From positions 13,954,511 to 14,008,754 of the forward strand of contig NC_057719.1 in the NCBI RefSeq assembly GCF_004010195.1: 54,244 nucleotides of DNA, given 5' to 3'. The notes beneath the pieces are model-generated. The model saw nothing but the letters and a program-made list of their open reading frames with translations, was not told the origin of the DNA and ran no database searches. The stretch is from Chiloscyllium plagiosum. Lineage: Eukaryota. Positions 1 to 49,346 of the stretch are shown here, one piece after another (within the stretch, counting starts at the first letter, position 1; each line of letters begins with the position of its first letter). A program made the position numbers and the translations under genes.

Positions 1-228
1 CCCTCCCCCACTCACCTATTGTACTCTATGCTACTTTCTCCCCACCCCCACCCTCCTCTAGCTTATCTCTCCACACTTCAGGCTCACTGCCTTTATTCCT
101 GATGAAGGGCTTTTGCCCGAAACGTTGATTTCGAAGCCTCTTGGATGCTGCCTGAATTGTTGTGCTCTTCCAGCACCACTGATCCAGAATCTGGTTTCCA
201 GCATCTGCAGTCATTGTTTTTACCAGAT
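1..228 (+). mobile_element. Penelope-like element 3' pLTR, family A (runs off window start)
   Basis: Same sequence as the pLTR attached to GIY-YIG-coding copies at 29560-29848 and 44307-44890; contains a hammerhead core at 99-126. Confidence 0.85.
95..130 (+). ncRNA. Minimal type I hammerhead ribozyme motif, family A
   Basis: CTGATGA(99-105)-A-GGGC-TTTT-GCCC-GAAAC-GTT(124-126); helix I pairing is weak. Confidence 0.75.
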
Positions 229-401
229 TGACAACTGAGCCAATTTCTGCCAAAACTCTGTCCTGTAAAGGGAAATATGCAAGTTCTAAATTGCCCTTAC
301 TCTTTGGTATTATCTGTGAATGGGTTTGTTGGAATTTTAAGATTAACAGGCTCACTAGCTATGGGGTGTCACACAGACAAGATAATGTAGTCACCTCTGC
401 A

Positions 402-1093
402 ATAGCTCTTTGAAAGTGGAGTTGCAGGTAGATAGGATAGTGAAGAAGGATTTGGTATGCTTTCCTTTATTGGTCAGAGTATTGAGTACAAGAGTTGGGA
501 GGTCATGTTGCGGCTGTACAGGACTTTGGTTAGGCCACTGTTGGAATATTGCGTGCAATTCTGGTCTCCTTCCTATCGGAAAGTTGTTGTGAAACGTGAA
601 AGAGTTCAGAAAAGATTTACAAGGATGTTGCCAGGGTTGGAGAATCTGAGCTATAGGGAGAGGCTGAACAGGCTGGGGCTGTTTTCCCTGGAGCATCGGA
701 GGCTGAGGGATGACCTTATGGATGTTTACAAAATTATGAGGGGCATAGATAGGGTAAATAGGCAAAGTCATTTCCATGGGGCCAGGGAGTCCAGAACTGG
801 AGGGCATAGGTTTAGGGTGAGAGGGGAAAGATATAAAAGAGACCTAAGGGGCAACTTTTTCACACAGTGGGTGGTACGTGTATGGAATGAGCTGCCAGAG
901 GAAGTGGTGGAGGCTGGTACAATTGCAACATTTAAGAGGCATTTGGATGGGTATATGAATAGGAAGGGTTTGGAGGGACATGGGCCGGGTGCTGGCAGAT
1001 GGGACTAGGTTGGGTTGGGATATCTGGTTGGCATGGACAGGTTGGACTGAAGGGTCTCTTTTCATGCTGTACATCTCTATGACTCTATGACTT
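402..1093 (+). mobile_element. CR1/HER1-type LINE, 5'-truncated 3' end
   Basis: ORF 457-1008 has CR1 ORF2 C-terminal motifs (LYRTLVRPLLEYCVQFWSP, NFFTQ.VV.VWN.LP); (CTCTATGA)n tail. Confidence 0.93.
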
Positions 1094-1345
1094 TATGTGT
1101 CAAGACTGTAGGAGATATGGTGAGAAAAAAGGTACATTCCTTTACAAATGCTTAACTAGAGATATCCACCACCATTTAATCCCTTTGCTGCCCTCTTGGG
1201 TGACCTGGCAATCCACTTAGTGCTGAAAACAACTACATCAAAAGAAGTTGAGTACCACAGCCTCACCAGTGTTTCCATAGCCCCAAGCAATTTTCTGAAA
1301 AAGTACTTGCCTCAAAAAAAAACTTTTGCGATTCAGTTTTGTTAT

Positions 1346-1435
1346 TAGTTAAAAGTCACACAACCCAAGGACTATTACCTGGTGCTGTGTGATTTTTAAC
1401 TTTGTACACTCCAGTCCAACACTGGCTCCTCCAAA
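1346..1435 (+). mobile_element. Short Penelope-like family B insertion with inverted 5' part
   Basis: Matches the ends of 49149-49346; flanked by 13-bp direct repeat TCAGTTTTGTTAT (1333-1345, 1436-1448). Confidence 0.75.
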
Positions 1436-1687
1436 TCAGTTTTGTTATGGCCTTTTATGAGTAGACGCAAAGTGAAAAGATAGCATATACAAGCCAGAGG
1501 CTTGGAAAACAATAGCATCAAAACTAGGAAATGGAATAGACTGTCTGGCCCTTTCAGCTTTATCTGCCATTCAATAGAATCCCTACAGTGTGGAAGAGGC
1601 CATTCAGCCTATCAAGTCTTATCAACCCTCCAAACAGCATTCTCCCTCTACCCTATCCCTGGATTTTATCATGGTTCACCCACACAT

Positions 1688-3962
1688 CAAAGAACAAAGC
1701 GCAAAGAAACTTTACAGCCCAGGAACAGGCCCTTCGGCCCTCCAAGCCTGAACCAATCCAGACCTACTGTCTATACCCGTCACCCAATTCCTAAGCATCT
1801 GTATCCCTCTGCTCACCACCTACTCATGCATCTGTCCAGATGCATCTTAAATGAATCTACCATGCCTGCTCCTTCTGCCACTGCTGGCAACGTGTTCCAG
1901 GCACCTACCACCCTCTTTGTAAAGTACTTGTCGCATGTTTCCCCCTTAAACTTTTTACCTCTCACCTTGAAAGTGTGCCCTCTCGTTTTTGAACCCTTCA
2001 CCCCGGAAAAAAACTTATCTCTATCTATCCTGTCTATACCCTTCATGATTTTGTAGACCTCAGTCAGTACCTCAGCAATCTCCTTTTTTCTAATGAAAAC
2101 AATCCTTACCTACTCAACGTTTCTTCATAGCTAGCACCTTCCATACCAAGCAACATCCTCGTAAACCTTCTCTGCACCCTCTCCAAAGCGTCCACATCCT
2201 TTTGCTAATGTCGTGACCAGAATCGTACACAGTATTGTAAATGCAGCTGAACCAATGTCTTGTACAATTTTAGCATGATCTGCCAGCTCTTATACCAGTA
2301 TCCCATCCAATGAAGGCAATCATATCATATGCCTTCTAGACTACTCTATCCACCTGTGCAGCAACCTTCAGGGTATAATGGACCTGAACTCCCAGATCTC
2401 TCTGCTCATCAACTTTTCCCATCAGGCTCTTCTGTTTACTGTATAATTTGCTCTCAAATTAGACTTCCCAAAATACATCACCTCACATTTGCCTGGATTG
2501 AAAACCATCTGCCACGTCTCCACCCAACTCTCCAGTCTATCTATGTTTTCCTGTATTCCCTGACAGTCCCCTATGCTTTCTGCTACTCTACCAATCTTTG
2601 TGTCATCTGCAAACTTATTGATCATACCAACAGTGCCCTCTTCCAGATCATTTATGTATATCACAAACAACAGTGACCCCAGCACTGATCCCTGTGGAAC
2701 ACCACTGGTCACCTTTCTCCATTTCAAGAAACTCCCTTCAACTACTACTCTCTGTCTCCTGTTGCTCAACCAGTTCTTTATCCACCTAGCTAGAACACTC
2801 TGCACATCATATGACTTCACTTTCTCCATTAGTCTACCATGGGGAACCTTATCAAACGCCTTACTAAAGTCCATGTATATGACATCAACAGCCCTTCCTT
2901 CATCTAACAACTTGCTCACTTCCTTGAAGTACTCTATTAAGTTGGTAAGGCACGATCTTCCCCGCAAAAAAAAACATATTGCCTATCACTGAGAAGCTTA
3001 TTCTTTTTAAAATATAAATATACCCTATGTCTCAGTACCCCCTCAAACAACTTGCCCACTTCCGACGTCAGGCTCACTGGTTTGTAGTTACCCGGAATAT
3101 CCCTAGTACCCTTCTTGTACAGGGGGATAACATGAGCAACCTTCCAGTCGTCTGGCACCTCACCTGTATTTAAGGATGCCACAAAGATATCTGTCAGGGC
3201 CCCAGCTATTTCCTCTCTCGTCTCCCTCAGCAACCTGGGATAGATCCCATCGGGTCCTGGGGATTTGTCCACCTTAATATCCTCTAGCCTACCCAACACA
3301 TCTTCCCTACTTATGTCAACATGTTCCAGACTAATCAAACTTCTATCTCTAATCTCAACATTCATCATGTTCCTCTCCTCCATGAACACTGATGCAAAGT
3401 AATCATTCAGACTCTCACCCATTCTCTCAGGTTTGACAAAGCATTCCTTCTCCTTATCCTTTATAATCCTTTCTCTAGTTACCCGCTTGCTTCTTATATA
3501 AGAATGAAAGGCTTTGGGATTCTCCTTAATTCTGCTCACTAAAGCTATTTCATGACCACTTTTAGCCCGCTTGTTTCCTCGTTTAAGACTGGTCCTACTC
3601 TCCTGATATTCCTCCAGGGCCCATTCTGTTCTTAGCTGCCTGGACCTTATGTACGCCTCCCTTTTCCTCTTGACTAGTCATATGATCTCTCCTGTCATCC
3701 ACAGTTCATTAATCTTGCCCTTCCTACCTTTGCCTTCAATGGGATATGCCTATCCTGCACTATCTTTGAAAGTCTCCCACATATCAAATTTGGACTTCCC
3801 TTCAAATAGTTGTGTCCAATCCACATTTCCCAGCTCCTGCCTAATTTTGATATAATTGGCCTTGGCCCAGTTTAATACTCTTCCCTTAAGACTACTCTCA
3901 TCTTTGTCTACGAGTATTCTAAAACTTACAGAATTGTGGTCACTGTTCCTAAAGAAATCCCT
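1688..3962 (-). mobile_element. CR1-type LINE, ~2.3 kb frameshifted ORF2 (end of endonuclease, RT, C-terminus)
   Basis: ORFs 3750-3986 (SDHN), 2937-3539 (KSPGPDGIYP), 2422-2967 (DFSKAFDKVPH, GVPQGSVLG, FADD) and 1813-2046. Confidence 0.95.
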
Positions 3963-4022
3963 GGACCCGATGGGACAGTTTACCATGGCTAATTGTTACA
4001 AAGTCGAAAGCATGTATGTTCA

Positions 4023-4545
4023 AAGTTTGGGTGAAGATTTGTAGCTCGGGTGCTCATTGTTGTGGTTCTGTTCGCCGAGCTGGAAACAGCCACCCTCAGA
4101 CAACAACTCACCAGAACGAAGGACCCGATACCCAGCATGGGCAAAACTAATTTAGTGTACAAAATCCCATGCAAGGACTGCACAAAACACTATATAGGAC
4201 AAACAGGAAGACAGCTAACGATCCGCATCCATGAACATCAACTAGCCACGAAACGCCACGACCTGCTATTCCTAGTAGCCACACACGCAGATGACCAGCA
4301 ACATGGATTCGACTGGGACAACACTACCATTACAGGGCAAGCCAAACAAAGAACAGCCAGGGAATTCCTAGAAGCATGGCACTCATCCACAAACTCCATC
4401 AACAAACACATCGACCTGGACCCAATATACCGGCCACTACAGTGGACAGCTGAAACTGACAACCGGAAGCGGCAGAGACAGGCCACTATAAATGCCGGAG
4501 GAAACACCACAGAAGCGCTTCACAGGAGGCTCCCAAGCACTGAGG
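4023..4545 (+). mobile_element. Penelope-like family C fragment with GIY-YIG endonuclease and oppositely oriented 3' terminus
   Basis: ORF 4050-4562 has VYKIPC..C..HYIGQTGRQL.IRIHEH; 4023-4083 is the reverse complement of the terminus at 37323-37383; TSD ATGTATGTTCA (4012-4022, 4546-4556). Confidence 0.92.
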
Positions 4546-4594
4546 ATGTATGTTCAGTTTAAATTCAAAAGCGTTTCTTTGGATTACTCAAGTT

Positions 4595-4997: not shown

Positions 4998-6402
4998 GAC
5001 TGGAGGTCGGCAAACATGGTGCCACTGTTTAAGAAGGGCGATAAGGACAAGCCAGGGAACTATAGACCGTGAGCCTGACATCGGCGGTGGGCAAGTTGTT
5101 GGAGGGAATCCTGAGGGACAGGATGTACATGTGTTTGGAAAGGCAAGGACTGATTAGGGATAGTCAACATGGCTTTGTGCATGGGAAATCATGGCTCACA
5201 AACTTGATTGAGTTTTTTGAAGAAGTAACAAAGAGGATTGATGAGGGCAGAGCAGTAGATGTGATCTATATGGACTTCAGTAAGGCGTTCGACAAGGTTC
5301 CCCATGGGAGACTGATTAGCAAGGTTAGATCTCATGGAATACAGGGAGAACTAGCCATTTGGAAACAGAACTGGCTCAAAGGTAGAAGACAGAGGATGGT
5401 GGTGGAGGGTTGTTTTTCAGACTGGANNNNNNNNNNNNNNNNNNNNNNNNNNNNNNNNNNNNNNNNNNNNNNNNNNNNNNNNNNNNNNNNNNNNNNNNNN
5501 NNNNNNNNNNNNNNNNNNNNNNNNNNNNNNNNNNNNNNNNNNNNNNNNNNNNNNNNNNNNNNNNNNNNNNNNNNNNNNNNNNNNNNNNNNNNNNNNNNNN
5601 NNNNNNNNNNNNNNNNNNNNNNNNNNNNNNNNNNNNNNNNNNNNNNNNNNNNNNNNNNNNNNNNNNNNNNNNNNNNNNNNNNNNNNNNNNNNNNNNNNNN
5701 NNNNNNNNNNNNNNNNNNNNNNNNNNNNNNNNNNNNNNNNNNNNNNNNNNNNNNNNNNNNNNNNNNNNNNNNNNNTATTGGTCAGAGTATTGAGTACAGG
5801 AGTTGGGAGGTCATGTTGTGGCTGTAATGGACATTGGTTAGGCCACTGTTGGAATATTGCGTGCAATTCTGGTCTCCTTCCTATCGGAAAGATGTTGTGA
5901 AACTTGAAAGGGTTCAGAAAAGATTTACAAGGATGTTGTCAGAGTTGGAGGATTTGAGCTATAGGGAGAGGCTGAACAGGCTGGGGGTGTTTTCCCTCGA
6001 GCATTGGAGGCTGAGGGGTGACCTTATAGAGATTTATAAAATTATGAGGGGCATGGATAGGGTAAATAGACAAAGTCTTTTCCCTAGGGTCAGGAAGTGC
6101 AGAACTTGAGGGCATAGGTTTAAGGTGAGAGGGGAAAGATATAAAAGATACCTAAGGGGCAACTTTTCCATGCAGAGGGTGGTACGTGTATGGAATGAGC
6201 TGCCAGAGGAAGTGGTGGAGGCTGGTACAATTGCTACATTTAAGTGGCATTTGGATGGGTATATGAATAGGAAAGGTTTGGAGGGATATGGGCCGGGTGC
6301 TGGCAGGTTAGACTAGATTGGGTTGGGATATCTGGTCAGCATGGACGGGTTGGACCGAAGGGTCTATTTCCATGCTGTACATCTCTATGACTCTATGACT
6401 TT
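4998..6402 (+). mobile_element. CR1/HER1-type LINE (RT to 3' end), spanning an assembly gap
   Basis: RT motifs (NYRP.SLTS, DFSKAFDKVPH); 3' part closely similar to 402-1093; (CTCTATGA)n tail. Confidence 0.93.
5427..5775. other. Assembly gap (N run)
   Basis: Run of N. Confidence 0.99.
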
Positions 6403-7043
6403 ATATTCCTTGAATTTCTGTATATTTTGAGACATCCTGCGCAGGTGCCAGGTCAAAGCAATAGTTGCAGAGTATGATGGGAGTGGACTGAAATAATGCT
6501 GTTCCTCTCATGGACACATTATAATGAAAAGGAGTAGACATTCACCTTAGCTGGCAATGAATCATTGGTGAAAAGCCAATGAGGATGACGAATTTCCAAT
6601 GCAATTCAGGCAGCAGCCTTAGAAAGGGACAGCCACAGGACCTTATTAGTCATGAGTGTTGTTGACCCTTGACATAGAAACAATGAAACTTGCTCAAAGA
6701 TACAGCTGGTTGGAACATGTTTTCAAACCTAATTTACCACATCCATCTCAAACCATAGACCCCTATTTGCCACTTTCTTAAACTATCATCATGAGGAACA
6801 TTTCAGATTATATGCCTTTCCCAGAACAGATAGACATAAAATACCAGCAAGAGTAATGAATTTTAACATTGTTTTTCTGTGACTCACAATTGAATCGTTA
6901 CAATCTGCACACTCCATAAGCCAACAAAATTAAGAGTCAACATCAACCAATTCCACTTACAGACGTATAACAAACCTTCAGCTGGAATTCATTCCCACAT
7001 AGGCATAATTTCATTTGATTAATTATTGTCACACGTACTAAGT

Positions 7044-7165
7044 AGGAGAAAGTGAGGACTGCAGATGCTGGAGATCAGTCGAGATTGTGGTGCTGGAAAA
7101 GCACAGCCGGTCAGGCAGCACCCGAGGAGCAGGAGAATCGATGTTTCGGATATAAGCCCTTTTAA
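7044..7165 (-). mobile_element. Short Penelope-like family A pLTR copy with degenerate hammerhead
   Basis: Reverse complement of the family A pLTR 3' segment. Confidence 0.8.
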
Positions 7166-7194
7166 GGGTAAAGGATAGACCGTAGACAAGCATA

Positions 7195-7292: not shown

Positions 7293-7313
7293 GAGTGCTT
7301 TGTAGCAAAATGT

Positions 7314-7450
7314 AGGGGGAAAATTACTGTAGATGCTGCAATCTGTACTGAAAACAACAAATGCTGGAGATCACAGTGGGTCAGGCATCATCCACAGAGA
7401 GAGAGCAAACTAACGTTTCGAGTCCAGATGACTCTTCATCAGAGCTGAAG
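7314..7450 (-). mobile_element. Short Penelope-like family D pLTR copy
   Basis: Similar layout to family A pLTR; carries an intact hammerhead. Confidence 0.7.
7408..7446 (-). ncRNA. Minimal type I hammerhead ribozyme motif, family D
   Basis: Minus strand AGCT-CTGATGA-A-GAGTC-ATCTG-GACTC-GAAAC-GTT-AGTT: 4-bp helix I (one G.U), 5-bp helix II. Confidence 0.82.
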
Positions 7451-8480
7451 CAGCAAAAAGTTTTCTGTTTTACTTGTCTTTGTTTTTTTTAAATTTCTCT
7501 TCTCATTAAGTCTTCATTTGCTGAGACATCGGAACTCGGAAGACAAGGCGGCTCAATGCAACTGAATGCTTCAGGACTGAAGTAAGTCTGTCTGTCACTC
7601 ATTATTTTGAGAGTGGATTTTTGTTTATACTGTGCTGTCACTGGTGTTGTTCAGTCTGAGCATTGTAGCTCCTTCAATATGTAATTTGAAAGCCTGTATT
7701 GTGATTTGATGCTTTGTATTCAAACATACTGAAACTAAACAAATAATTCATTTGTCATTTATGTTTTAACAAAAGGAATAGGAAATAACACTGCAGTGAA
7801 TAACAACTCTAATTGATGGATTCACATGCAGTTTTTAAACCGTAAAAGCAACTATTAGACCCAAGGGGTGTATTTCATAGGCAAACCTTTTTGAAAATAT
7901 TGTTCCACTCTCCTGCTACTGTCAATTTCTTTCCTCAAAATTGGATATCAATAGTTTCTGTTTCTGCTTGCTGACCGCACTTTTTGTAAACTGTGGTTCA
8001 TTTCCTCCAGTCCCTTCATCATTTCTTTGTGGAATTAGTAAGCCTTTCATTTATATTGAGGTATTTTTAAAAATGCTGCACCCCTTTAGAGTGTATGCAT
8101 TGGAAACTCAAGACACAATCTGATTTGCAAATTTGAGCTTCCACTGATTTTGGGGAAGGGGAGTGTTTGTGGATTTCAAAGTGACCCACATATTGCACTA
8201 TGCAGTTCAACTGTCTCAAAGTGCTTCGCACAATGAATCAAGTCTCTCCGTAAGTAAGTCTTGTCTCAGGTTCCTGTTAAACACCTCTGTCATGTCTATA
8301 TACAAAATGAATCCTGAATGTTGTCATACTGGGCATGGATGATCAACATCTCGCAGTTTTGTGACTAAGGTACACTGCTGACAGTAATTCTCTTTTCTAT
8401 ACCGATTCTAAGGCCTGCCTAATTTTTAGGGGTAAAGGATAGGCAAGAAGTGGACCTTGTCAAACATAACCAAAAAGTTT

Positions 8481-8793
8481 AGATTAGTTTCCCTACAATG
8501 TGGAAACAGGCCCTTCAGCCCACAGTGACCCTCTGAAGAGTTACCTACCCGGACCCATTTCCTTCTAATTAATGTACCTAACACAATGGGCAATTTAGCA
8601 TGGCCAATTCACCTGACTTGCACATCTTTGGACTGTGGGAGGAAGCCAGGGCACCCAGCAGAAACAGGGAGAATGTGCAAACGCCACACAGACGGTTGCC
8701 CAAAGCTGGAATTGAACCAGGAACCCTGATGCTATGAGGCAGCAGTGCTAACCACTGAGCCACCATGCTAACCACTGAGCCACTGTGCTACCC
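8481..8793 (-). mobile_element. HE1-type V-SINE
   Basis: tRNA-like head, V-domain (GTTTGCACATTCTCCC), CR1-like tail; 20-bp tandem duplication at 8746-8783. Confidence 0.88.
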
Positions 8794-9368: not shown

Positions 9369-9593
9369 CTAGGAGGAAGTGAGGGCTGCAGACGCTGGAG
9401 ATCAGAACTTAAAAATGTGTTGCTGGAAAAGCGCAGCAGGTCAGGCAGCATCAAAGGAGCAGGAGAATCGACGTTTCGGGCATAAGCCCTTCTTCAGCCC
9501 TTCCTGAAGAACGGCTTATGCCCGAAACGTCGATTCTCCTGCTCCTTTGATGCTGCCTGACCTGCTGCGCTTTTCCAGCAACACATTTTTAAG
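9369..9593 (-). mobile_element. Penelope-like family A hairpin insertion (two hammerheads back to back)
   Basis: 90-bp inverted arms 9408-9497 / 9504-9593 with 1 mismatch; TSD CATAGATAACCAA (9356-9368, 9594-9606). Confidence 0.9.
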
Positions 9594-10896: not shown

Positions 10897-11298
10897 GACT
10901 ATCACCTGATGAAGGAGCAGCGCTCCAAAAGCTAGTGCTTCCAATTAACCGTGTTAGACTATAACCTGGTTATGATTAGATTCCCTACAGTGTGGAAACA
11001 GGCCCCTCAGCCCAACACCAACTCTCTGAAGAGTAACCCACCCAGATCCATTTCCCTCTGACTAATGCACCTAACACTATGGGCAATTTAGCACGGCCAA
11101 TTCACCTGACCTGCACATCTTTGAAATGTGGGAGGAAACTGGAGCACCCAGAGGAACCCCACACAGGGAGAACATGCAAACGCCACACAGACAGATGCCC
11201 AAGGCTGGAATTGAACCTAGCCCCTGGCGCTGTGAGGCTGCATTGCTAACCACTGAGCCACTATGCTGCTCCTTGGGGTGCTGTGTGATTTTTAACAA
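10897..11298 (+). mobile_element. Penelope-like family B pLTR split by a SINE
   Basis: CTGATGAAGGAGCAGCGCTCCAAAAGCTA from 10906 (G-to-A in GAAA); sequence resumes at 11277-11296. Confidence 0.75.
10975..11272 (-). mobile_element. HE1-type V-SINE
   Basis: Full head-body-tail similarity to 13191-13492. Confidence 0.88.
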
Positions 11299-16148: not shown

Positions 16149-16222
16149 CTTAAAAATGTGTTGCTGGAAAAGCGCAGCAGGTCAGACAGCATCAAAGGAT
16201 ATGCAGTCCTCACTTTCTCCTA
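16149..16222 (+). mobile_element. 74-bp Penelope-like family A micro-insertion with inverted 5' part
   Basis: Inverted ~50 bp plus sense terminus GCAGTCCTCACTTTCTCCTA; TSD GGGATTCACTGATG (16135-16148, 16223-16236). Confidence 0.85.
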
Positions 16223-34567: not shown

Positions 34568-34960
34568 CTTTGAAAATGTTTAAGACTGAAGTGGCTAGAT
34601 TCTTGAGCAGCAAGGCTGTAAACAGTTATTGGGGACAGGGTGGAATGCAGAGTAATCGATCAACCATGATTTTGTTAAACAACGGAGCAGGCCTGAGCAA
34701 CCGAGAGACCTACTCATGCTCCTAATTCACATGGTCATGTGTAAAAGCGACATCCAGCCTCCTTTGAAAATGGATGAACAGGAAAATATCATCTATATGT
34801 ATTAAGATAAAAAGGCTAATTACATGAGACTCCTCAATCTGTCTCAAAGGAGCATTTAATAATCAGGCCAACAAGAGTAACAAGGATTTGGAGCTGCAAA
34901 CAATGGTGAGGTTAACAGTGATCCCAGTTATTGCAATGTAAATTGGATGGTTAAAAATCA

Positions 34961-35224
34961 TTTTCTGAAGATGGGCTTATGCCCAAATCATCGATTCTCC
35001 TGCTCCTTGGATTCTGTCTGGCCTGCTGTGTTTTTCCAGCACCACATTTTTCAAATCTGGTCTCCAGCATCTGCAGTCCTCACTTTCTCCTAGTTAAAAA
35101 ATCACACAACATCAGGTTATATCCAACACCTAGCACTTCCAAATAAAGCTGGTGGACTATAACCTGCTGTTGTGTGATTTTTAGCTTTGTCCACCCCAGT
35201 CCTACACCGGCTCCTCTACATCAT
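34961..35224 (+). mobile_element. Family A short copy (34961-35092) abutting a family B hairpin remnant (~35095-35224)
   Basis: Mutated hammerhead at 34965; near-duplicate GTTAAAAA(A)TCA at 34950-34960 and 35093-35104. Confidence 0.7.
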
Positions 35225-35304
35225 GTAAAATGGAGGCCTTTATCTTCTAGAAACTGAATACTAACAGTCTTTTGCCACCAAAATACATTGAATAGCATGG
35301 AGAT

Positions 35305-35590: not shown

Positions 35591-36513
35591 GCTATACCTA
35601 CTTGATACGTACACACTGAACTTACCTTACACAGTGATAGTTTATCTGTTCCAATGTAAGTTCCCCTTAAATATAATGCAGAGTTATCGTCAATTACCTT
35701 CTGTGACACATAAGATTAAGTTAACAAGTATGGAGACTTCAGAGAAAAGTTAGAGTTTATGGATTAAAAGGGTCAGTAGTAACATGTTTACAACATTGAC
35801 TGAGGGATAGGAAACAAAGGGGAATGGTTGGTGGGTATTATTCAGGCCCATGGAAAGTTTGTAGTGGAACTCCCATGGGTTTGGTATGGGAGCCTTACTT
35901 TTCCTGAGATTTATATAAATCACCCTGATGTGCCAGGAACAACTTCAATGTTTGTGGATAAATTTATAATGTAGAAATCCAAAAAAAAATTGATAATCTA
36001 ATGTAGTGGCTAATAGGCAGCAGGTGAAGTTTAATGTATAAACTTCATGGCATGATCCATTTTGATGCAAATGTCAGGAAGAGACAATAGAAAATAAAGG
36101 ATGTGTAGGAGAGCAGAGATGTGGGTAAATGTACATAAGTCATCAGGACAGGCAAAGAGAGATGTTAATGAAGTATATGTATTCTAGACTTCGAGAAAAC
36201 ACTAGTTAGACCTCAGCGAGAGGATTGTCTATGGTTCTGAGTGGCACAATCCAGGAAGGCAAACAGAGAGTGCAACCATCACAGCCAATTCTAGCTCATC
36301 TTACCAAATGGTATTTTCAGATTAATTCACCACTGTTGGATATTCTGGAATTAACTGGTACATCGCGTGCCTGTGTGACTTTTAAAAGCTCATTGTGACA
36401 TGCACTGTCAGTCTGGAACTACCCTGCATACTTCCTGACATTTGCCTCAGACATGGCACTCAGCTTTGTGGGCAAGGTCCTGGATACCTGCTAGACTGGG
36501 TGATGTAGACTCT

Positions 36514-37383
36514 GTTGTGGTTCTGTTCGCCGAGCTGGGAATTTGTGTTGCAGACGTTTCGTCCCCTGTCTAGGTGACATCCTCAGTGCTTGGGAGCTTC
36601 CTGTGAAGCGCTTCTGTGATGTTTCCTCCGGCATTTATAGTGATTTGTATCTGCCGCTTCCGGTTGTCAGTTCCAGCTGTCTGCTGCAGTGGTCGGTATA
36701 TTGGGTCCAGGTCGATGTGCTTATTGATTGAATCTGTGGATGAGTGCCATGCCTCTAGGAATTCCCTGGCTGTTCTCTGTTTGGCTTGTCCTATAATAGT
36801 AGTGTTGTCCCAGTCAAACTCATGTTGCTTGGCATCTGAGTGTGTGACTACTAAGGATAGCTGGTCATGTCGTTTCGTGGCCAGTTGGTGTTCATGGATG
36901 TGTATCGTTAGCTGTCTTCCTGTTTGTCCTATGTAGTGTTTTGTGCAGTCCTTGCATAGGATTTTGTACATTACATTGGTTTTGCTCATGCTGGTTATCG
37001 GGTCCTTTGTCCTGGTGAGTTGTTGTCTGAGAGTGGCTGTTGTTTTGTGTGCTGTTATGAGTCCTAGTGGTCGCAGTAGTCTGGCTGTCAGTTTTAGGAC
37101 AGTTTTAGGCATGGCACTCATCCACAGATTCAATCAATAAGCACATCGACCTGGACCCAATATACCGGCCACTGCAGCAGACAGCTGGAACTGACAACCG
37201 GAAGCGGCAGATACAAATCACTATAAATGCCGGAGGAAACATCACAGAAGCGCTTCACAGGAGGCTCTCAAGCACTGAGGATGTCACCTAGACAGGGGAC
37301 GAAACATCTGCAACACAAATTCCCAGCTCGGCGAACAGAACCACAACAACGAGCACCCGAGCTACAAATCTTCTCCCAAACTT
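36514..37383. mobile_element. Penelope-like family C, inverted-duplication insertion with GIY-YIG fragment
   Basis: ORF 36570-37133 (-) is GIY-YIG; 241-bp inverted arms 36514-36754 / 37107-37347; TSD TGATGTAGACTCT (36501-36513, 37384-37396). Confidence 0.93.
36550..36589 (-). ncRNA. Type I hammerhead ribozyme motif, family C (second copy at 37272-37311 +, with GTC changed to ATC)
   Basis: GCA-CTGAGGA-T-GTC-ACCTAGACAGGG-GAC-GAAAC-GTC-TGC. Confidence 0.8.
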
Positions 37384-38489
37384 TGATGTAGACTCTCTCT
37401 CTTCCCTTCGACCAGCAGTGGAGGTCACGACACCAGACCTTATTCTTCCTAACTACCCTACCTGAACCCCTCATAATTTTATACCTCTTACTTGAACTTC
37501 CCCTCAGCCTCCTTTTTTCCAAAGAAAACCTCCCCAACTTTCTGCATTAGTAAAATTTGCAGACGCGCAGAGCCAGCAACATCCCAGTAGAGTCCCTCTG
37601 ACTAACATGTCTCCCCAGTGCACCCTCCCACCTTCCCAATCTCAGCCCCCAGCCCCATCCTCTTCCTGAACTGGCACCAGAAAAACCCTGGATTAATGAA
37701 ATTCTGAGGAAAGGTAATCAATCTGAAATATAAATTCTCTTTCTCTCTCTCTGTCTCTTAATTCAAAATGTGTTTCACTTTGGTATAGAGCTTTGGAAGG
37801 TTTGTTATATACAGTGTGATAAATGAACTGTGAGCAAACACATTAAAGACATCAGTTCCAAATTGACAAAGTATAAACATCATTTCACAAGTAGAAGTGA
37901 GTCAAACATTTGGTTTGGAACTGGACTGAGGATGACGGTGATAAATATGCTGAACCAACACCTGTAGACCATAACTTTTACCGATTGTGCTTAATTTCTC
38001 AATTTTTCCAAAATTGTGAAGTCAAGAAACAAACCTGCTCAGGCGCCTTGCTCTGTTAAAAGGCTGAAAACGTAGCATAACAAATTTAAACAAATATGGA
38101 AGATCTGAGTTGGACTTCCTCATCCAGACTTTTTTTTAAAAAGCTGTTGGTCAATTATTATTCCTAAGTAAGGGATGTCATATCCTAGAAATCTCACAGT
38201 GTTAATGTTGGAGACTGTCCTATGGATTTCAATGTGGCTGCAGCACTTTCTCTCCTAGAAGAGAAAACTGATAAATGAGACATATTGTTCCAATTTGTTT
38301 TGTATTACACAGAACAGTGCTCCAGTTTGACCTGTACTTTCACTTCCAAGTGTTACTGGTCCTTCGCTCTCTAGCAGTTCATGTTCCCTCAATACTGACC
38401 CACTGTCAGTGCAACACTCCCTCTGAATTTAATTTGGACTGTTAGCCTGGATTATGTGCCCAGTTGTCTGAAGTTTCAGGTAGGAGATT

Positions 38490-39503: not shown

Positions 39504-40791
39504 GCTCTTCAGAGTATCGCTACATTCTCAGTTGGAGCTGACCTTCAGCAGAAGCGAGGAAAAGTGAAAGCTTAATAAGTCCAATGCCAAGTTTAGTGGG
39601 AGTAGTTTGAGATCTAATCCTCGAACCAGTGTCTCACCTTTGCTCAGGCTTGAGTCAGCTAAAGAAGATGAAATGGTTCAGTAGTTCGATGAAGGCTTCA
39701 GGTAATCTGTGAGGAATGCAGCGTGGGTTAGCATGCTGTCTTTTCAGCTCTGCAAAATCTGGATGTGAACCCTATGAAGAAAGATGGATTAAAAATCATC
39801 TTTCTCTGCGCTTTGCAATATCCTTAACTGAAATGAGATCAGAAAGTGTCAGTATAATCTGCTGATAAGGAGCATTAAAATCATCAACTTCACTCAGAAA
39901 GGCCACAGGGATGCAGTTGGAGATAGTGTCCAGGTGCTGAAATTAAATTCCTTGGCCATGTTTATTATCTCTGTTTATTATATCTCGTAGATAAGATCCT
40001 GAATAGTCCTAACAGGGTAGAGCTGGAAGGAATGTTTCCCCTTTAAAGAGAATCAGGAACTAGTGGCCTCTGTTTAAATATCAGGGGCTCACCCACATAC
40101 AACAGAGATGAGATACAAGCTTTTGTCTCAGAAGGCCACGAGTATTTGCAATTCTTCTCCTGAAAATGTGAGGATATGGCCCACTGTATTGTGTGCCACT
40201 AATCACTGTGCTCAATGGGATTGGTTTCTGAAGACTGGAACTCAAATCTGGGCATCCTGGCCTCTGTGGGACAGTAGCAGTTGCATAGTATTCAATTTGC
40301 TTGGTATGTCTCCCACTCTATCAATACCATCAAACCCTTGATCAATGAAGAGTGAAGGAGGGTATGCCAAGGGCAGCACCAGGGCAGCACCAGGGATATT
40401 CCTAATAATAAGGTGTCAACCTGGTGAAGATATAAGACAGGACTACAGGATTACCTACATGCTAAACAATGGTAATGGTATGCTATAAATGAGTTAAAAA
40501 GATCTCACAACCAACATTTCCAATCTAAGCTCTATAGCCCTGTCACAACTAACAGCAAAGGAGGCTTCACTGGCCCTCAAAGATGCCCAGAGCATCAATG
40601 TAAAGGAGAGGGGGCTGAAGCATTTGCGCCCACCTTCAGCCAGAAGTGTCAAGCGGGTGATCTACCTTGGCCTCCGCCTGATTCAATTTACTCCATGTGA
40701 TGAGAAGGAACTGGAATTAGCAGAGGCGTTGAGTCCTGATTAAGTTCTGGCAGTAATACTGTGCTTTAGAGAAAGCAGAGTGGGAGAGTAC

Positions 40792-41104
40792 TTGCTGTGC
40801 TTTTCCAGCACCACTCTGATCTAAACTCTGGTTTCCAGCATCTGCAGTCCTCACTTTTGCCTAGTTGATTTTAACCTTACTGCGAATCCTCTTGCAAGGA
40901 TGCCTACCTTGAAGAAGTTCTCCTCCTCTCTCCACAAGAATCTCAGTGAGTCTCTCTCTCACTGCAACCCCCAGGTCATCTCCTCTGCCCTGAAGCTCGT
41001 CAATCATGTACTCTTTGCTACCTTCCTCCGCCCTCCTCTCTGACCTATCACCTCCATCCCCACCCTCATTCACCTATTGTACTCTTTGCTACCTTCCTCC
41101 ACCC
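40792..41104 (+). mobile_element. Penelope-like family A piece: pLTR end, probable ORF start, then rearranged pLTR
   Basis: pLTR end at ~40864 followed by ATG at 40900 (MPTLKKFSSSLHKNLSESLSHCNPQVISSALKL); 23-bp direct repeat 41007-41029 / 41078-41100. Confidence 0.65.
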
Positions 41105-41680: not shown

Positions 41681-41833
41681 AAAATGTTGGACTGAACCCC
41701 TAAGTGGGGTCACTCACTCTGAGGCAGCAAAGGCCATGTTGGAGTTCTGACATTGTTATAACAGCCGCACTCCCCATTTAAGGGGGAGGCAGGGCTGGTA
41801 GAATAGTAATGGTAGTCAAATAGTAATCCACAA

Positions 41834-42007
41834 TGTCAAAACGTGTGGCACTGGAAAAGCACAGCAGGTCAGGCAGCATCCCAGGAGTAGGAGAGTCGAT
41901 GTTTCAGGCATAAGCCCTTCATCAGGAATGCTGCTTGACCAGCTGTGCTTTTCCAGTGCCACACATTTCAATTCTGATCTCCAGCATCTGCAGTCCTCAC
42001 TTTCTCA
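41834..42007 (+). mobile_element. Penelope-like family A inverted insertion inside a second-family SINE (41795-42320)
   Basis: TSD TAG(T/C)AATCCACAA (41821-41833, 42008-42020). Confidence 0.82.
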
Positions 42008-43159: not shown

Positions 43160-43605
43160 AACAAAAACAGAAATTGCTGGAAAAGCTCAGCAGGTCTGAC
43201 AGCATCTTCAGAAATGTTTTCAATGTGAAACGTTCGCTCTGATTTCTCTCCACAGACCTGCTGAGCTTTTCCAGCAATTTCTGATTTTGTTTCTAATTTA
43301 CAGCATCCGCAATTGTATTGGTTTTTATTCTGTATTGTAAACTTGATAGCATCTACAGGCTGTTCAAGTAAAGTATGATTCCAGCTGTAACAACCACAGA
43401 GATTGCTGGAGAAATTCAGCAGTTCTGGCAGCAATTCCAGAAAAAAAAAGTCAATATTCTGGTATAACTCTTCTTTTGAACTTCAGAGTCATAGCAGACT
43501 CAAAATGTTACTTCTGTTTCTCTCTCTCCACAGATATTGCTCGCCTTTCTCCAGCATTTACATGTTTGTTTCAGATTCCCAGCATTCACAATATTTTGCC
43601 TTTGT
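43160..43605. mobile_element. Two adjacent degenerate family D-like Penelope hairpins
   Basis: Inverted CAGAAATTGCTGGAAAAGCTCAGCAGGTCTG / CAGACCTGCTGAGCTTTTCCAGCAATTTCTG; similar to 45590-45715. Confidence 0.6.
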
Positions 43606-43681
43606 CTAATATTCTGTCCACCACTGATTCCCACACGTTTACAGCAAGGTGCTGGAATACCAGTGAGGGGCATAATCTGAA

Positions 43682-43755
43682 GGCTCCATAGCTCAGTGGG
43701 TGAGAGCACTGGCCTTGTAAACCCGGGGTCGTGAGTTCAATCCTCACTGGGCTCT
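43682..43755 (+). tRNA. tRNA-Thr(TGT)-like, probably a pseudogene
   Basis: GGCTCCATAGCTCAG..CTTGTAA..GTGAG-TTCAATC-CTCAC; intact A/B boxes and T-arm, but C3:C70 and two anticodon-stem mismatches and no adjacent T4 terminator. Confidence 0.85.
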
Positions 43756-43849
43756 TACCCAGTTTAATGAAAAATAAAAGTCTCAAAGATGAGGGGAATG
43801 TTTTAAAACTCTGAAAGAAAACGACAACTCTCAGAGAAATGCATGACAG

Positions 43850-45592
43850 AAAAGTGGGAGTTTATTTCGGAAGCACTTGCTGATTGTCCCACTAAGGAAA
43901 GGTAAAGGACGGTAGGGTGAAAGAACCTTGCATGACAAGGGATGTGGAACATCTCATCAAGAGGAAGAAGGAAGCTTACTTAAGGTGGAGGAGGCAAGGA
44001 TCAGACAGGACTCTAGAGGATGACAAGATAGACAGGAAGGAATTGAAGAATGGACTTAGGAGAGCTACAAGGGTGCATGATAAAGCCTTGATGGGTAGGA
44101 CTAAGGGAAAACCCTAAGGTGTTCTACACTATGTGAGGAACAAGGGGATGGCCAGCATAAGGGTAGGACTGACCATGGATAGTGGAGGGAACTTGTGCCT
44201 GGAGTCGGAGGACATAGAGGAGGTCTTTAATGAATACTTTGCTTCAGTATTCACTGGCTTAGAGGGACTTTGACACTTCTGAGGACAGCATGATATACTT
44301 GTGCAGAGGGTCAGGCAGCATCCGAGGAACAGGAAAATCAACGCTTCGGGCAAAAGCACTTCATCAGGAATTGAAGTAGGGTGCCTGCAGGGTGGAGAGA
44401 TAAATGAGGTGGGGAGGGCTGGGGGAAGGTAGCAAAGAGTACAATGGGTGAATGGGGGTGGGGATGAAGGTGATAGGTCAGAGAGGAGGGTGGGGTGGAT
44501 CAGTGGAAAGGAAGATAGGCAGGTAGGACAGGTCATGAGGGCGGTACTGAGCTGGAAGATTGGAGCTGGGGTGAGGTGGGGAAAGGGGAAATGAGTAAAC
44601 TGGTGAAGTCCACATTGATGCCATGGGGTTGAAGTGTTCCGAGGCGGAAGATGAGGCATTCTTCCTCCAGGCGATGGGTGGTGAGGGAGCTGCGGTGAAG
44701 GAGGCCCAGGACCTGCATGTCCTCGGCAGAGTGGGAGGGGGAGTTGAAATGTTGGGCCACAGGGCGGTGGAGTTGATTGGTGCGGGTGTCCCGGAGATGT
44801 TCCCTAAAGCGCTCTGCTAGGAGGCGTCCAGTCTCCCCAATGTAGAGGAGACTATCTAGACTCTGGTTTCCAGCTTCTGCAGTCCCTACTTGATATGCTT
44901 GTACAGTTTGGTGTTAGGAAGGAGGATGAGCTGAAAGTTTTGAAAAACATAAGGAAAGGTAAAACCCCTGGACTAGGCAGATTATGCCCTCGGTTACTAC
45001 AGGAAGTGAGGGAAGAGATTGCGGCATGTTTGGTGATGATCTTTGTGTCCTCCCTGTCCATTGGAGTAGTGCCAAATGATTGGAGGGTGGCAAATACTAT
45101 TCACTTGTTCAAGAAAGAGAATAGGGATAATCCTGGGAAATACGGACCAGTCAGTGTTACGTTAGTGGTGGGCCAAAGTATTGGAAAAGATTCTAAGAGA
45201 CAGGATTTATGATTACTTTAAAAACCATAATTTGATTAAAGATAGTCAGCATGAGTTTGTGAGGGGGAGGTCATGCCTCACGAACCTTATTCAATTATTG
45301 AGGATGTGACAAAACATGTTGATGAAGGTAGAGCAGTGGATATGGTGTACATGGATTTTAGCAAGGTGTTTGATAAGGTTCCCCATGGTAGATTCTTTGA
45401 GAAAGAAAGGAGGCATGGGATACAGGGAAATCTGGCTCTCTGGATACAGAACTGGCTGGCCCACAGAAGACAGAGGTTGGTGGCAGATGAAAAGTACTCA
45501 GCCTGGAGCTCACCGAACATCAGTGATGTTTCGCAGGGATCGGTTCTGGGACCTCTGCGCTTTGTGATTTTTATAAATGACTTGGATGAGGA
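43850..45592 (+). mobile_element. CR1-type LINE internal fragment interrupted by a Penelope element
   Basis: ORFs 43917-44117, 44895-45212 and 45273-45617 (DFSKVFDKVPH, QGSVLGPL). Confidence 0.88.
44307..44890 (-). mobile_element. Penelope-like family A: inverted GIY-YIG C-terminus/pLTR plus short opposite-strand terminus (~44854-44890)
   Basis: AQHFNSPSHS..LIFRLGTLQPHGINVDF; TSD TGATAT(A/G)CTTGT(G/A)CAG (44291-44306, 44891-44906). Confidence 0.88.
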
Positions 45593-46856
45593 AGAGTCAC
45601 TGGACCTGAAACGTTAACTCAAATTTCTCTTCACAGATGCTGCCAAACCTGCTGAGCTTTTCCAGCAACCTCTGTTTTGTTTCTGTTTTACAGCATCCAC
45701 AGTTCTTTCGGTGTTTATTCACCACAAACGATAATGATTTGACCATTCATGTGAAGCCCCTACCTTACCTGTCGAATGGAAGCAGGTAGATAGGAGAAAA
45801 TTATGACCAGGTTTCTATACTTAACAAGACTATTTATTATAACTAAATACCAAACAGGGGCAGAACAAAACTATGATTTATTAAAAGGTAACTTTACTAG
45901 TTGAAATTCTAACCCCTTTAAAAATCAATAGGTACGTATATGGACAGTCCCAGACAAACAAAAATGTATTGGGTGGAGAATGAAAAACTGGGGAAACACA
46001 GTTCAATAGCACCAGTCCACAGAACTCATGAAATGTTACTTTCACTTCACAGGAATTCTGTTCTGCAAACCCTTTCTCCAGACTCTGTCACACAATTCAT
46101 TTGGGACACTGAATATGTCACTCCTTGTACCACCAATGCTGCTGTCTCCTTTCTCAGAGATGGTGGCGAGAGGGCGGCAAGAGATTTGTGATAGGTTGCT
46201 GCAGACCACATGGTACAGGGGGCATGCTCTTTCTTAAAGGTAAGCTGCCTCGCCGAGAAAACTGCTCAAAGGACTCACCCCCCAACGCAAATTCCTGCAA
46301 ACGGAATGTCAGGTCCACAGTGGAATCCAGACTGGTGGATGTGGCATAGGTGGGAAGGAGGAGAGGTATCATGTTCCTGCATGGGGTGAGGGGACGCTGA
46401 AAGGTCACATGCATAATGAAGTGGATAGAGGAAGCCTAGGAAAGCTAACTGCTTGTATCCACAAGGATTTACATCAGGAATGTTATCAATTACCTTTTTA
46501 CACCATAAGACCAAAAGATCATAAGATATAGGAGCATAGTTGGCCTTTGAGTCTGCTCTGCCACTTGATTGCAGCTGATGTGTTTCTCAACTCCATTCTC
46601 CCACCTTCTCCCCAGAACCCATGAGCCCTTTACTAATCAAGTTTCTCTGTTTTAATACACTCGATGACTTGGCCACTACAGCTTTCTGTGGCAATGAACT
46701 TTACAGATTCACCACCTTCTGGTTGAAGAAGTTCCTCCTCATCTCAGTTCTAAAGGGTCATCTCTACAATCTGAAGCTGTGCCCTCAGGTCTTAGTCTCT
46801 CCCATTAGTGGAAACATCTTCTCTACATCCATCTATCAAGGCCTCTCAGTATTCTG

Positions 46857-47087
46857 GGCTGAAAATGTGTTGCTGGAAAAGCGCAGCAGGTGAGGCAGCA
46901 TGCAGGGAACAGGAGAATCGACGTTTCGGGCATAAGCCCTTCTTCAGGAACTTTCCTCATTCCTGAAGAAGGGCTTATGCCCGAAACGTTGATTCTCCTG
47001 TTCCCTGGGTGCTGCCTGACCTGCTGCGCTTTTCCAGCAACACATTTTCAGTTCTGATCTCCAGCATCTGCAGACCTCACTTTCTCC
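46857..47087 (+). mobile_element. Penelope-like family A hairpin insertion
   Basis: 92-bp inverted arms 46859-46950 / 46960-47051; TSD CCTCTCAGTATTCTG (46842-46856, 47086-47100); both hammerhead cores intact. Confidence 0.9.
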
Positions 47088-47222
47088 TCTCAGTATTCTG
47101 TAAGTTTTGATCAGATCCAACCCTCATCCTAAAAACTCCATCGAGTACAGGTGCAGAATCCTCAACCAACACGTCCTTCCTTAGATACAGGGCTCAAAAC
47201 TGCTCACAAAATTCCAAATGTT

Positions 47223-47334
47223 GCTCTATTCCTGATGAAGGGCTTTTGCCCGAAACATCGATTTTCCTGCTCCTCTGATGCTGCCTGACCTACTGTGCTT
47301 TTCCAGCACCACGCTGATCTAAACTTTTGCCTAT
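47223..47334 (+). mobile_element. Penelope-like family A short copy beginning at the hammerhead
   Basis: CTGATGA at 47232; TSD ATTCCAAATGTT (47211-47222, 47335-47346). Confidence 0.82.
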
Positions 47335-47919
47335 ATTCCAAATGTTATTTGTACTCCAAATGTATTCCTAATGAGAGATCCTCCACAGACTGTTTCACCA
47401 TCACACTGACTGTGAGGAACATATAAGAAACAGGAAGGTGCAAGGGAGAGATCCTTTGGAATCTGGAGGGTATAGGAGTAGGAAACAAAGCCATTGCTGA
47501 TGAACCTCTGGCTATGAATGGCTATTCAAGAGTGGAACTTTGTGAGTGTAACCTCACTGAGCAATGAAGAGTTTTGAAGGGGTTTGGTGTGGTCAGGTGT
47601 GTCTGAGGCTGCAAGAAGTTTATGAATGATGAGGAAAGAGAGTTGATTTTGTCATTTTGACTAGATCACAGGCTCTTGGCTCAAGTGCAATCCTACTTAC
47701 TGGGTTGAGCATGGATCAAGTTTTGTGTAATGCCAATGCATCAAGAACTTGTTGGGGTTGTTGCGGGGGGGGGAGGTGGAGGAGTGGAATTTATAGGTTT
47801 GAGCAAGTGCTATATCTGAGGCATGGAAACCTTGAACATTAGCAATTAAGGTAGAGAGCTGGAAAGGATATTCAGTGACCAGTGCACCTACTATTCGGGA
47901 AATCAGTAGCACATAACAG

Positions 47920-48125
47920 GGGTCAGATTAGCTCGGTTGGTTGGATGAATGGTTTGTGATGCAGGGTAACACCAACAGCTTTGATTCCCACACTGGCTGA
48001 GGTCACCATAAAGGATTCTTCTTCCCAAACCTCTCCCCCGATCCGCGGTGCAGTGACGTTCAGGTCAAACCACCACCAGCCATCTCTGTAATGGGAGAGC
48101 AGCCCGATGGTGACTTTACCTTTTA
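47920..48125 (+). mobile_element. tRNA-derived SINE, third family
   Basis: TAGCTCGGTTGG A-box-like head; three copies in the window. Confidence 0.6.
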
Positions 48126-48993
48126 GCATGCTAACTCCTTGATTGGAAAGCAATGAGTGAAATGTAGCCGGCCTGCACTGAATATGTAAGATTGCTGATT
48201 AGTACTTCACATTGGCAACTATCTTCCTCCACACTCGTAGAACATAAGGGACAGGAGCAAAGAAAGACCACTTGGTGCTTTGAGCAACATAGCTGATCCT
48301 CGAGCTCAACTCCAATTTCCCATCTTATCCATTTGTCCAGTGACTCCCTTCCTGCCCAGATATCCATGAACCTCACTTTCGGAAATAATCAGCAACTGAG
48401 CATCCCTCGTCCTCTGGGATGTATGCAACTCTCAGAGGTAATCCTTGCTCATAGCCGTAGCACAGGGTTTGATGAAGTGGTGGGAATATAGCAGGAAGTC
48501 AACCTACGTTGGCCAACCCATTCCTTACAGAGCCATTAACTGGGTCATGAGCAATTTCCTCAGTCAAATTGGGTGTTGGAAATGGCAAAACAAAATCGCC
48601 AAATAGAAACATAGGTGTGGACAGCAGGTCATTTATGGGGTAACAGTTATATTGTGATTCTTATCCTGGATTTCAATTTATTGAGAATGACTTGACAATA
48701 ATAGGAAATTTTCTAAGCTGTCTCTAGTAATGAACCGTCTCCACTATGTTGCAAATTAATTAACTCCAATCAGGCTTTCATTCTGTATGCAAATCAGCCG
48801 AACTAAATTAAACATTTTCCACATTAATGAAAAGAAGGATTACCGATCTACGCAGCATGCTTTAATACACTTGTTTAAATGGGGTGACTGAGGGTCTAGG
48901 CCAGAAATCCAGAGCTGGTCAGAGATACGAGGTAAACGAAGTTCTGATTTTCTGTGTTTTGAGAAGTTTGTCTTGGATTCACTTATTGACTAA

Positions 48994-49009
48994 CAGCGCC
49001 ATCTAGCAG
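48994..49009 (-). promoter_or_regulatory. Candidate CTCF motif
   Basis: Minus strand CTGCTAGATGGCGCTG resembles the CTCF core; motif match only. Confidence 0.35.
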
Positions 49010-49148
49010 TATTTCAAAGGAATGGTTCACTTTGTTTACAAGACCAATTGCAAATACAAGACCAGTTCAATCTTAGTAAAACATTGCAAGGGTTTGTCAG
49101 AAAATGTTCCATTTTGTTCTGAATAACATGTCTTCACACACAAAGATA

Positions 49149-49346
49149 AAAATCACACAACACCAGGTTGTAGTCCAACAGGTTTAATTGGAAGTACACT
49201 AGCTTTCGGAGCGACGCTCCTTCATCAGGTGATAGTGCGTCGCTCCGAAAGCTAGTGTGCTTCCAATTAAACCTGTTGGACTATAACCTGGTGTTGTGTG
49301 ATTTTTAACTTTGTACACCCCAGTCCAACACCAGCATCTCCCGAAT
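49149..49346 (+). mobile_element. Penelope-like family B hairpin insertion
   Basis: 71-bp inverted arms 49147-49217 / 49237-49307; TSD CACACAAAGATA (49137-49148, 49347-49358). Confidence 0.88.
49197..49231 (-). ncRNA. Minimal type I hammerhead ribozyme motif, family B
   Basis: CAC-CTGATGA-A-GGAGC-GTC-GCTCC-GAAAG-CTA-GTG. Confidence 0.82.

Follow-up and report, generated by a model that had tools for sequence, protein, structure and literature searches.

Minimal hammerhead ribozymes (min-HHRs) occur in Penelope-like elements (PLEs), and a 2014 study reported multiple families per genome, pairs of motifs on opposite strands and fish examples from the Poseidon and Neptune groups (PMC4209133). 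A Schistosoma min-HHR was found there to cleave weakly as a dimer or trimer but not as a monomer. PLEs with an endonuclease (EN+ PLEs) leave partial, inverted, 5'-truncated copies with a 30-40-bp tail at one end, a CX2-5CxxC linker before the GIY-YIG domain marks the Neptune and Nematis groups, and the role of the ribozyme in EN+ PLEs is still called unclear (PMC8557442). In PAc, a Poseidon element of Anolis carolinensis, cleavage needed the protein of the element and was not required for insertion (PMC11167929). A connection between PLE repeats and retrozymes is drawn in a 2026 preprint whose genomes include one chondrichthyan (bioRxiv 10.64898/2026.07.22.740005). We have analysed 54,244 nucleotides of the shark Chiloscyllium plagiosum (NC_057719.1, positions 13,954,511 to 14,008,754; 'the window'), in which hammerhead motifs of four families, A to D, recur within short insertions. 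Positions are those of the window, with (-) marking the reverse strand.

We consider it probable, and hold the view with good confidence, that the motifs are minimal type I hammerheads in the terminal repeats of broken PLE copies, family C being of Poseidon type, A and B of Neptune type and D likely kin to A, and that most of these copies were made from uncut RNA. As an entry in a catalogue the motifs carry little weight, since min-HHRs are a known signature of PLE repeats. The pairing of hammerhead and PLE is already described; less usual is the large number of short copies that start just before the motif.

Results and discussion

Hammerhead motifs in the window

A scan of both strands found every core named by an earlier, sequence-only reading of this DNA where that reading had placed it (Table 1). 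Five of the cores on its list are nevertheless damaged. The first pair of helix II is broken in 9504 (CGGC/GCCC), 20769 has GGGT in helix II and a broken first pair in helix I, ACAT replaces the palindrome ACGT in 47232 and 37275, and 10906 has AAAA in place of GAAA. Further copies beyond that list belong to family A [9497(-), 46947(-), 41925(-), 44367(-), 34965, 32677 and 7161(-)] and to family B [23253, 23243(-) and 30636].

Our strict descriptor, consisting of CTGANGA, a helix II of at least 3 bp, GAAA, a Watson-Crick palindrome and TH, gave ten perfect matches, compared with a mean of 0.022 and a maximum of one in 500 dinucleotide shuffles of the window. Eight matches were left, and none in the shuffles, when a helix I of at least 2 bp was also required. 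With at most one mismatch there were 16 matches (eight A, three B, two C, one D and two outside the families, at 27988 and 37704). A chance origin, or a function for a host gene, is very improbable. The one point in its favour is the perfect match at 37704, which lacks a repeat context; the count of ten against 0.022 rules out chance, and each of the other nine perfect matches falls in an insertion that can be assigned to a family, such insertions occurring on either strand and often being in decay. Both 37704 and 27988 were rejected as family members, there being no repeat context around either. The former (37704-37732, +) has the palindrome ATAT, a 4-bp helix I and a weak helix II, and is either a chance match or a very old fifth family.

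In the four families helix II follows an unpaired 5' base and begins with the pair G10.1-C11.1, an arrangement that 37704 lacks; its length is 4 bp in A, 5 bp in B and D and at least 3 bp in C. Helix III is reduced to a palindrome, ACGT in A, C and D and AGCT in B. Helix I is short: A has 2 bp and an additional pair, B and C have 3 bp and D has 4 bp. A common variant, 29752 T>A, seen in 159 of 1629 reads of the run X21, perfects helix I of family A to the 4-bp AUUC/GAAU and may mark a more active A subfamily. The type I core, the unpaired base, G10.1-C11.1, the palindromic 15.2-16.2 and the short helix I are all as in metazoan min-HHRs, as are the several families per genome, the mainly single truncated copies and the opposite-strand pairs (PMC4209133). 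The shark helix I differs in having just 2-4 bp, and the clustering of 5' ends described below goes unmentioned in the portion of that paper available.

The helices had also been said to covary. This holds between families, where four to five independent examples still pair, and fails within them: the window contains no compensatory change, and the helix variants among copies of one family either keep the pair through G-U or break it. The comparison is an informal one, a cross-family MAFFT alignment having misplaced C and D. An Rfam scan of the window gave 53 matches at E values of 5 or less, and hammerhead families were absent from these; the matches were microRNA-like hairpins over head-to-head insertions and one tRNA.

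The suggestion that these families might be uncharacterised was too strong in respect of novelty, given the multi-family genomes, opposite-strand pairs and fish examples in the 2014 study and the chondrichthyan genome in the preprint. Our literature search found no description of these shark families or of their 5'-end pattern; Repbase and Dfam lay outside it, and prior annotation there is possible. Cartilaginous fish were absent from the portion of the PMC4209133 alignment available and from a term search of two of its supplementary files, and a paper on killifish Neptune mentions neither hammerheads nor pseudo-long terminal repeats (pLTRs).

Assignment of the families

The earlier linkage of families A and C to GIY-YIG reading frames is real (29231-29494 and 44536-44853 in A; 4086-4562 and 36570-37094 in C), and an origin from PLEs is borne out for all four families, for B and D by more than the analogy first offered. 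Pfam matches on the short GIY-YIG pieces are weak, with E values of 0.035-0.082 for three of the five and no match for the other two, and the best protein matches are from Chiloscyllium punctatum, at 88-90% identity, as expected of a bamboo shark or a near relative. The window holds endonuclease pieces only; reverse transcriptase (RT) and, C-terminally, a GIY-YIG domain are present in one open reading frame (ORF) in shark relatives of A (P0016) and of C (P0001 and P0008). At 29722, 44367, 36586 and 4540, and at 1334 of the metagenome contig L002 discussed below, the hammerhead lies in the pLTR downstream of the endonuclease on the sense strand.

The endonuclease of family C (4086-4562) is 89-90% identical to the C. 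punctatum proteins P0001 and P0002, one of which also has an RT domain, and carries no cysteine linker. The family C core reads CTGAGG-ATG, and the frame is open from this AUG to the end of the copy. PAc has the same CUGAGG-AUG overlap, with its ORF starting at stem II (PMC11167929). The cut site lies 28 nt after the AUG in family C and 26 nt after it in PAc, the tail ends 106 nt into the frame compared with a reverse-transcription start at 111-118 in PAc, and both have two 3' ends, 38 nt apart. The missing linker and the PAc-like layout suggest that family C is a Poseidon-type PLE. Cleavage of PAc has been assayed, and is assisted by protein, whereas the shark copies are known from sequence; A, B and D would represent another PLE group. 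TATAAA stands 53 nt upstream of the core in all three family C copies [4540, 36586(-) and 37275], a candidate promoter that differs from that of A.

The family A endonuclease has a Cx4CxxC linker and is 71-76% identical to the shark RT and GIY-YIG protein P0016. Family A appears to be Neptune-type on the basis of this linker, which is common to Nematis too. The repeat downstream of the family D motif matches that of A at 72-77% over 60-90 nt (E from 5e-10 to 0.02), and D is likely kin to A. At 40790-41104 the tail of an A2 copy (A1 and A2 are subtypes of family A) runs into a possible ORF start (MPTLKK...) and then jumps to 3' sequence rich in pyrimidines; no other part of the 5' ORF of family A may be present in the window.

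Family B copies are head-to-head insertions with arm ends near +75-88 and +113-122 (counted, as throughout, from C3 of the core), which leaves on one side the tail of about 40 nt that is typical of PLEs (PMC8557442). Four B insertions have 12-13-nt target duplications by an automated test, and a fifth duplication is visible around a nested A copy. The 28-letter B motif was found in two metagenome contigs, both PLE-like, and a search of a viral contig collection gave no match. In L002 the motif (1334-1361) lies downstream of, and on the same strand as, a Cx3CxxC and GIY-YIG-like ORF (48-581) that is 34-35% identical to family A and returned no match in a Pfam search; in L001 (99-449) it is joined to an inverted RT piece that is 41% identical to P0016, the relative of A, against 31% to P0001, the relative of C. 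The B motif is downstream of an apparently Neptune-type endonuclease or RT in both contigs, and A and the relatives bearing the B motif share with Neptune and Nematis the CX2-5CxxC linker before a C-terminal GIY-YIG domain (PMC8557442). A search at similar lengths for relatives of the L002 endonuclease in sharks brought up nothing beyond its own family (one of eight candidates). An apparently Neptune-type element of an unrelated marine organism carries a hammerhead nearly identical to that of shark family B, which may reflect shared ancestry or horizontal transfer.

Target duplications and 3' ends

The insertions carry 12-15-nt target duplications and head-to-head arms. A duplication score of at least 9 was obtained for 12 of the 24 insertions tested (four of them B), compared with 1% of 293 random pairs. 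The 3' ends fall at two fixed places, separated by about 40 nt and situated 75-125 nt downstream of the core: the arms end at +85 and +125 in A and at +73 and +111 in C, and the D-like insertion 43164-43330 also has a one-sided tail. Loose ends at 29802-29807 and 29846-29847 were seen in all three informative read runs (X21, X4 and X7). Inverted 5'-truncated partial copies with a 30-40-bp tail at one end are likewise a feature of Neptune and Nematis elements (PMC8557442).

By analogy with PAc, the protein of the element would start reverse transcription at two internal sites, and could do so from either strand of the DNA. For A and B, copying would often extend no further than the front edge of the ribozyme, a short distance away, leaving copies of 100-250 nt that retain the entire motif. 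The density of motifs is probably high because these short copies keep the motif whole. One A copy (34961-35092) sits in the arm of a B insertion (34950-35226); since each has its own target duplication, family A was active after that B copy had inserted.

5' ends and probably uncut templates

We took the 5' end of each insertion from its longer arm. Twelve of the 20 A and B insertions (8 of 14 A, 4 of 6 B) begin between -13 and +6, most commonly at -4; one begins near the cut site and three A insertions extend far upstream. The scan statistic, computed per insertion under geometric truncation models, gave upper bounds on P of 5e-5 (A) and 0.004 (B). For eight of the 12 clustered ends a junction or a target duplication defines the position. 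A cut template would give copies that start at +28 and contain no core. Because the copies pass the cut site and end only where helix I begins, most of them are likely to have been reverse-transcribed from RNA that the ribozyme had left intact, which agrees with unprocessed RNA being the main substrate of PAc in vitro (PMC11167929).

Among 3356 aligned raw reads of X21, a run with the same species label, the largest 5' loose end is at 29718, equivalent to -4 (173 reads, agreement 0.41, mixed flanks), and the read depth, 894 at 29726, is down to about 230 by 29712. Divergence of the upstream sequence between subfamilies is unlikely to be the sole cause of this drop, because 72% of the reads at 29726 share the reference N7 base. 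DNA contigs have strand-switch joints at 29718-29719. No pile-up of reads is listed at the cut site in X21, a library unable to show cleavage. The RNA run comprises poly(A) single-cell data in which the copies are embedded in host transcripts on both strands, and is unable to reveal cleavage or a start site.

Several observations weigh against our interpretation. Four of the 12 clustered ends (7161, 10898, 20765 and 32676) are ends of alignments, beyond which subfamily-specific upstream sequence is possible, and the consensus of the X21 loose ends at -4 is pyrimidine-rich and resembles the DNA upstream of A2. Family C does not cluster (5' ends at +45, -168, -455 and -520). The arms at 29108 and 4549 end within the core, at a distance of about 25 nt upstream from the cut, so that cleaved templates are possible for these, and one B arm begins at +26, 3 nt from the cut. 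As regards the assignments, the similarity of D to A is modest, the window yielded neither a full-length element of A, B or D nor a shark ORF for B or D, and L001 and L002 are one family, from a marine host, and show little resemblance to B outside the motif.

It is possible, although we think it unlikely, that transcription of A and B begins at the 5' edge of the ribozyme. Cleavage would then remove the cap and about the first 32 nt (together with the AUG in C) and serve as an off-switch triggered by concentration or by protein, instead of making the template for transposition. The peak of 5' ends, at -4, coincides with the first base of helix I, the 4-bp helix made by 29752 T>A starts at that same base, and in all four A upstream sequences a match to YYANWYY, the initiator consensus, sets +1 at -4 or -5. 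Such matches are, however, frequent in pyrimidine-rich DNA, with two more in one copy and one in another, and the B start at -8 has no confirmed match. The promoter of Penelope in D. virilis is internal and TATA-less with an initiator, but transcription there starts about 120 nt upstream and an intron ends at helix I (PMC2377424). PAc, for its part, inserts from unprocessed RNA and has its AUG upstream of the cut (PMC11167929). Taken further, shark Neptune-type transcripts would start at the first base of helix I, the short copies would be complete cDNAs of the 5' end of uncut RNA, primed at the upstream internal start site, and the ribozyme would be a self-decapping switch and no processing step of transposition. 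We put this forward as a rather doubtful proposal; if true, the switch would fire when the RNA or protein of the element is abundant and would limit the spread of the element itself.

Alternatively, RT might stall or fold back at the near-palindromes that lie over the start of the core (TCATTCCTGA in A, ATCACCTGAT in B), in which case no transcript start is implied. The fold-back-like junctions at 23248 and 9498-9500 suit this idea, as do the inverted-junction palindromes of rotifer Penelope, which were interpreted as self-priming (PMC3846280). Against this, the same start is seen in copies that have no partner arm, namely 34961 (-4) and 47223 (-9), each flanked by a duplication. RT stops at RNA structure are expected on the 3' side of a helix and not once the helix has been passed. 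We retain stalling as a tentative explanation that is probably not the correct one.

It seems improbable to us that the short copies are non-autonomous, retrozyme- or SINE-like (short interspersed nuclear element) units that a small number of short masters gave rise to, perhaps by way of tandem dimers and RNA circles. PLE-derived non-LTR (long terminal repeat) retrozymes are known, one chondrichthyan genome included (bioRxiv 10.64898/2026.07.22.740005), and the shark copies resemble them in being short, non-coding, related to PLEs and equipped with a type I hammerhead (PMC7229834). Joints in X4 and X7 contigs that run from +29..+31 back to -7..-3 correspond to tandem ribozyme repeats of about 36-48 nt. 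Non-LTR retrozymes, however, form head-to-tail tandem arrays, whereas the shark copies are dispersed, single or head-to-head, and bounded by duplications (PMC7229834); the window contains no head-to-tail units each with a hammerhead, and none of its six tandem-repeat rows bears one. The head-to-head junctions differ from insertion to insertion, even between two A1 hairpins, as expected of independent events. Copies derived from circles should, moreover, start at the cut site or exceed one unit.

We favour copying from uncut RNA. Should the 5'-end pattern hold genome-wide, it would give fossil support for unprocessed RNA as the template, as in vitro. The pattern is in addition a cheap genomic readout of the role of the ribozyme, and if genome-wide would point to a regulatory role at the 5' end of the transcript.

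Predicted cleavage and dimer formation

Loop III has a length of 0 nt and a single monomer is unable to form helix III. With no loop III the monomer has no active fold, which fits the definition of a min-HHR (PMC4209133). Modelled active dimers, with 4-nt flanks, lie 9-18 kcal/mol above the predicted lowest-energy fold, although the family C energy used only 3 bp of helix II and understates C. The ribozyme would be a slow one, cutting as a dimer held by the ACGU or AGCU palindrome and/or with the protein of the element as a helper.

No compatible intact pair on the same strand is nearer than about 9 kb within the window. The nearest perfect cores of the same strand and family, 20769 and 29722, are 8953 nt apart and the former is damaged in helix I; closer same-strand neighbours mismatch in the palindrome (46947 of A with 49228 of B) or, in the case of 9497, have no helix I. 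Where two motifs lie close together they are on opposite strands, and their pairing would give long hairpins with the motif buried inside. The scattered copies in the window are therefore most likely inert. Elsewhere in related genomes, family A ribozyme repeats are indicated by X4 and X7 joints that connect 29751-29753 with 29715-29719 (one with a summed depth of 632), and such tandem repeats could form dimers in cis.

Insertions and other features of the window

The PLE-derived pieces number about 26 and make up roughly 11% of the window (Table 1).

Table 1. Hammerhead cores named by the sequence-only reading and PLE-derived insertions in the window.
Feature	Position	Strand	Details
Family A cores, named earlier	99, 9504, 20769, 29722, 46963, 47232	+	both-strand scan
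Family B cores, named earlier	49200-49228; 10906	-; +	both-strand scan
Family C cores, named earlier	36553-36586; 37275	-; +	both-strand scan
Family D core, named earlier	7412-7442	-	both-strand scan
Family A (A2 subtype) 3' end	1-225	+	core 99-126, cut site after 126; extends past window start; 79% to 44462-44311
Family B head-to-head, no core	1347-1438		13-nt target duplication
Family C	4020-4549	+	inverted tail arm 4020-4086(-), GIY-YIG arm 4085-4549 ending in core; 14-nt target duplication (1 mismatch)
Family A short copy	7044-7170	-	decayed core
Family D short copy	7310-7446	-	intact hammerhead 7408-7446, helix II GAGTC/GACTC, palindrome ACGT
Family A1 head-to-head	9371-9589		cores 9497(-), 9504(+); arm ends +125, +85; 13-nt target duplication
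Family B short copy	10898-10970	+	core 10906-10934, GAAA>AAAA
Family A head-to-head, no core	16153-16221		14-nt target duplication
Family A2 short copy	20765-20913	+	begins 4 nt before core 20769; adjoins (GA)n run
Family B head-to-head	23170-23375		damaged cores 23243(-), 23253(+); 13-nt target duplication (1 mismatch)
Family A1 long copy	29108-29847	+	inverted arm 29108-29198 ending in core; Cx4CxxC linker and GIY-YIG 29231-29494
Family A1 long copy, 3' part	within 29108-29847	+	assembly gap, intact hammerhead 29722-29749, tail to 29847
Older family B head-to-head	30599-30741		12-nt target duplication (1 mismatch)
A-related head-to-head	32599-32750		different helix II; decayed core 32677
Family B head-to-head	34950-35226		13-nt duplication (2 mismatches); sequence inspection
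Family A copy nested in preceding	34961-35092		own 11-12-nt duplication; sequence inspection
Family C head-to-head	36513-37386		GIY-YIG arm 36513-37106(-), intact hammerhead 36553-36586; 13-nt target duplication
Family C head-to-head, second arm	37107-37386	+	core 37275, AUG 37281, 38-nt tail
Family A2 tail	40790-41104	+	then possible ORF start, then jump to 3' sequence
Family A head-to-head	41838-42006		damaged core 41898-41925(-); 14-nt target duplication (1 mismatch)
D-like head-to-head, no core	43164-43330		
Family A2 long copy	44303-44891	-	GIY-YIG 44536-44853(-), core 44367(-) with GAAG, inverted tail 44854-44891; 12-nt target duplication (1 mismatch)
D-like copy	45590-45720	+	decayed core
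Family A1 head-to-head	46858-47088		intact cores 46947(-), 46963(+); 15-nt target duplication
Family A2 short copy	47223-47333	+	core 47232 (ACAT); 12-nt target duplication sets 5' end at -9
Family B head-to-head	49140-49345		intact core 49200-49228(-), helix II GGAGC/GCTCC, palindrome AGCT, cut after CUA; 12-nt target duplication

The remainder of the window includes many fragments of long interspersed nuclear elements (LINEs), which may be CR1-like, with RT-like frames (402-1096, 1819-3158, 4998-6404, 16334-17046, 45069-45591 and others). A SINE-like repeat of about 300 bp has at least eight copies (for example 8479-8775 and 10969-11267), in one of which an exact 156-bp tandem duplication (98%) at 20101-20412 reflects a recent event or an assembly artefact. 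ARAGORN identified a tRNA-Thr(TGT)-like gene at 43681-43756 (+), scored at 47.6 bits by Rfam and with some stem mismatches, which is either a gene or the head of a SINE. Finally, a 33-bp minisatellite of about 114 copies occupies 49894-53592, and a related piece is found at 38369-38423.

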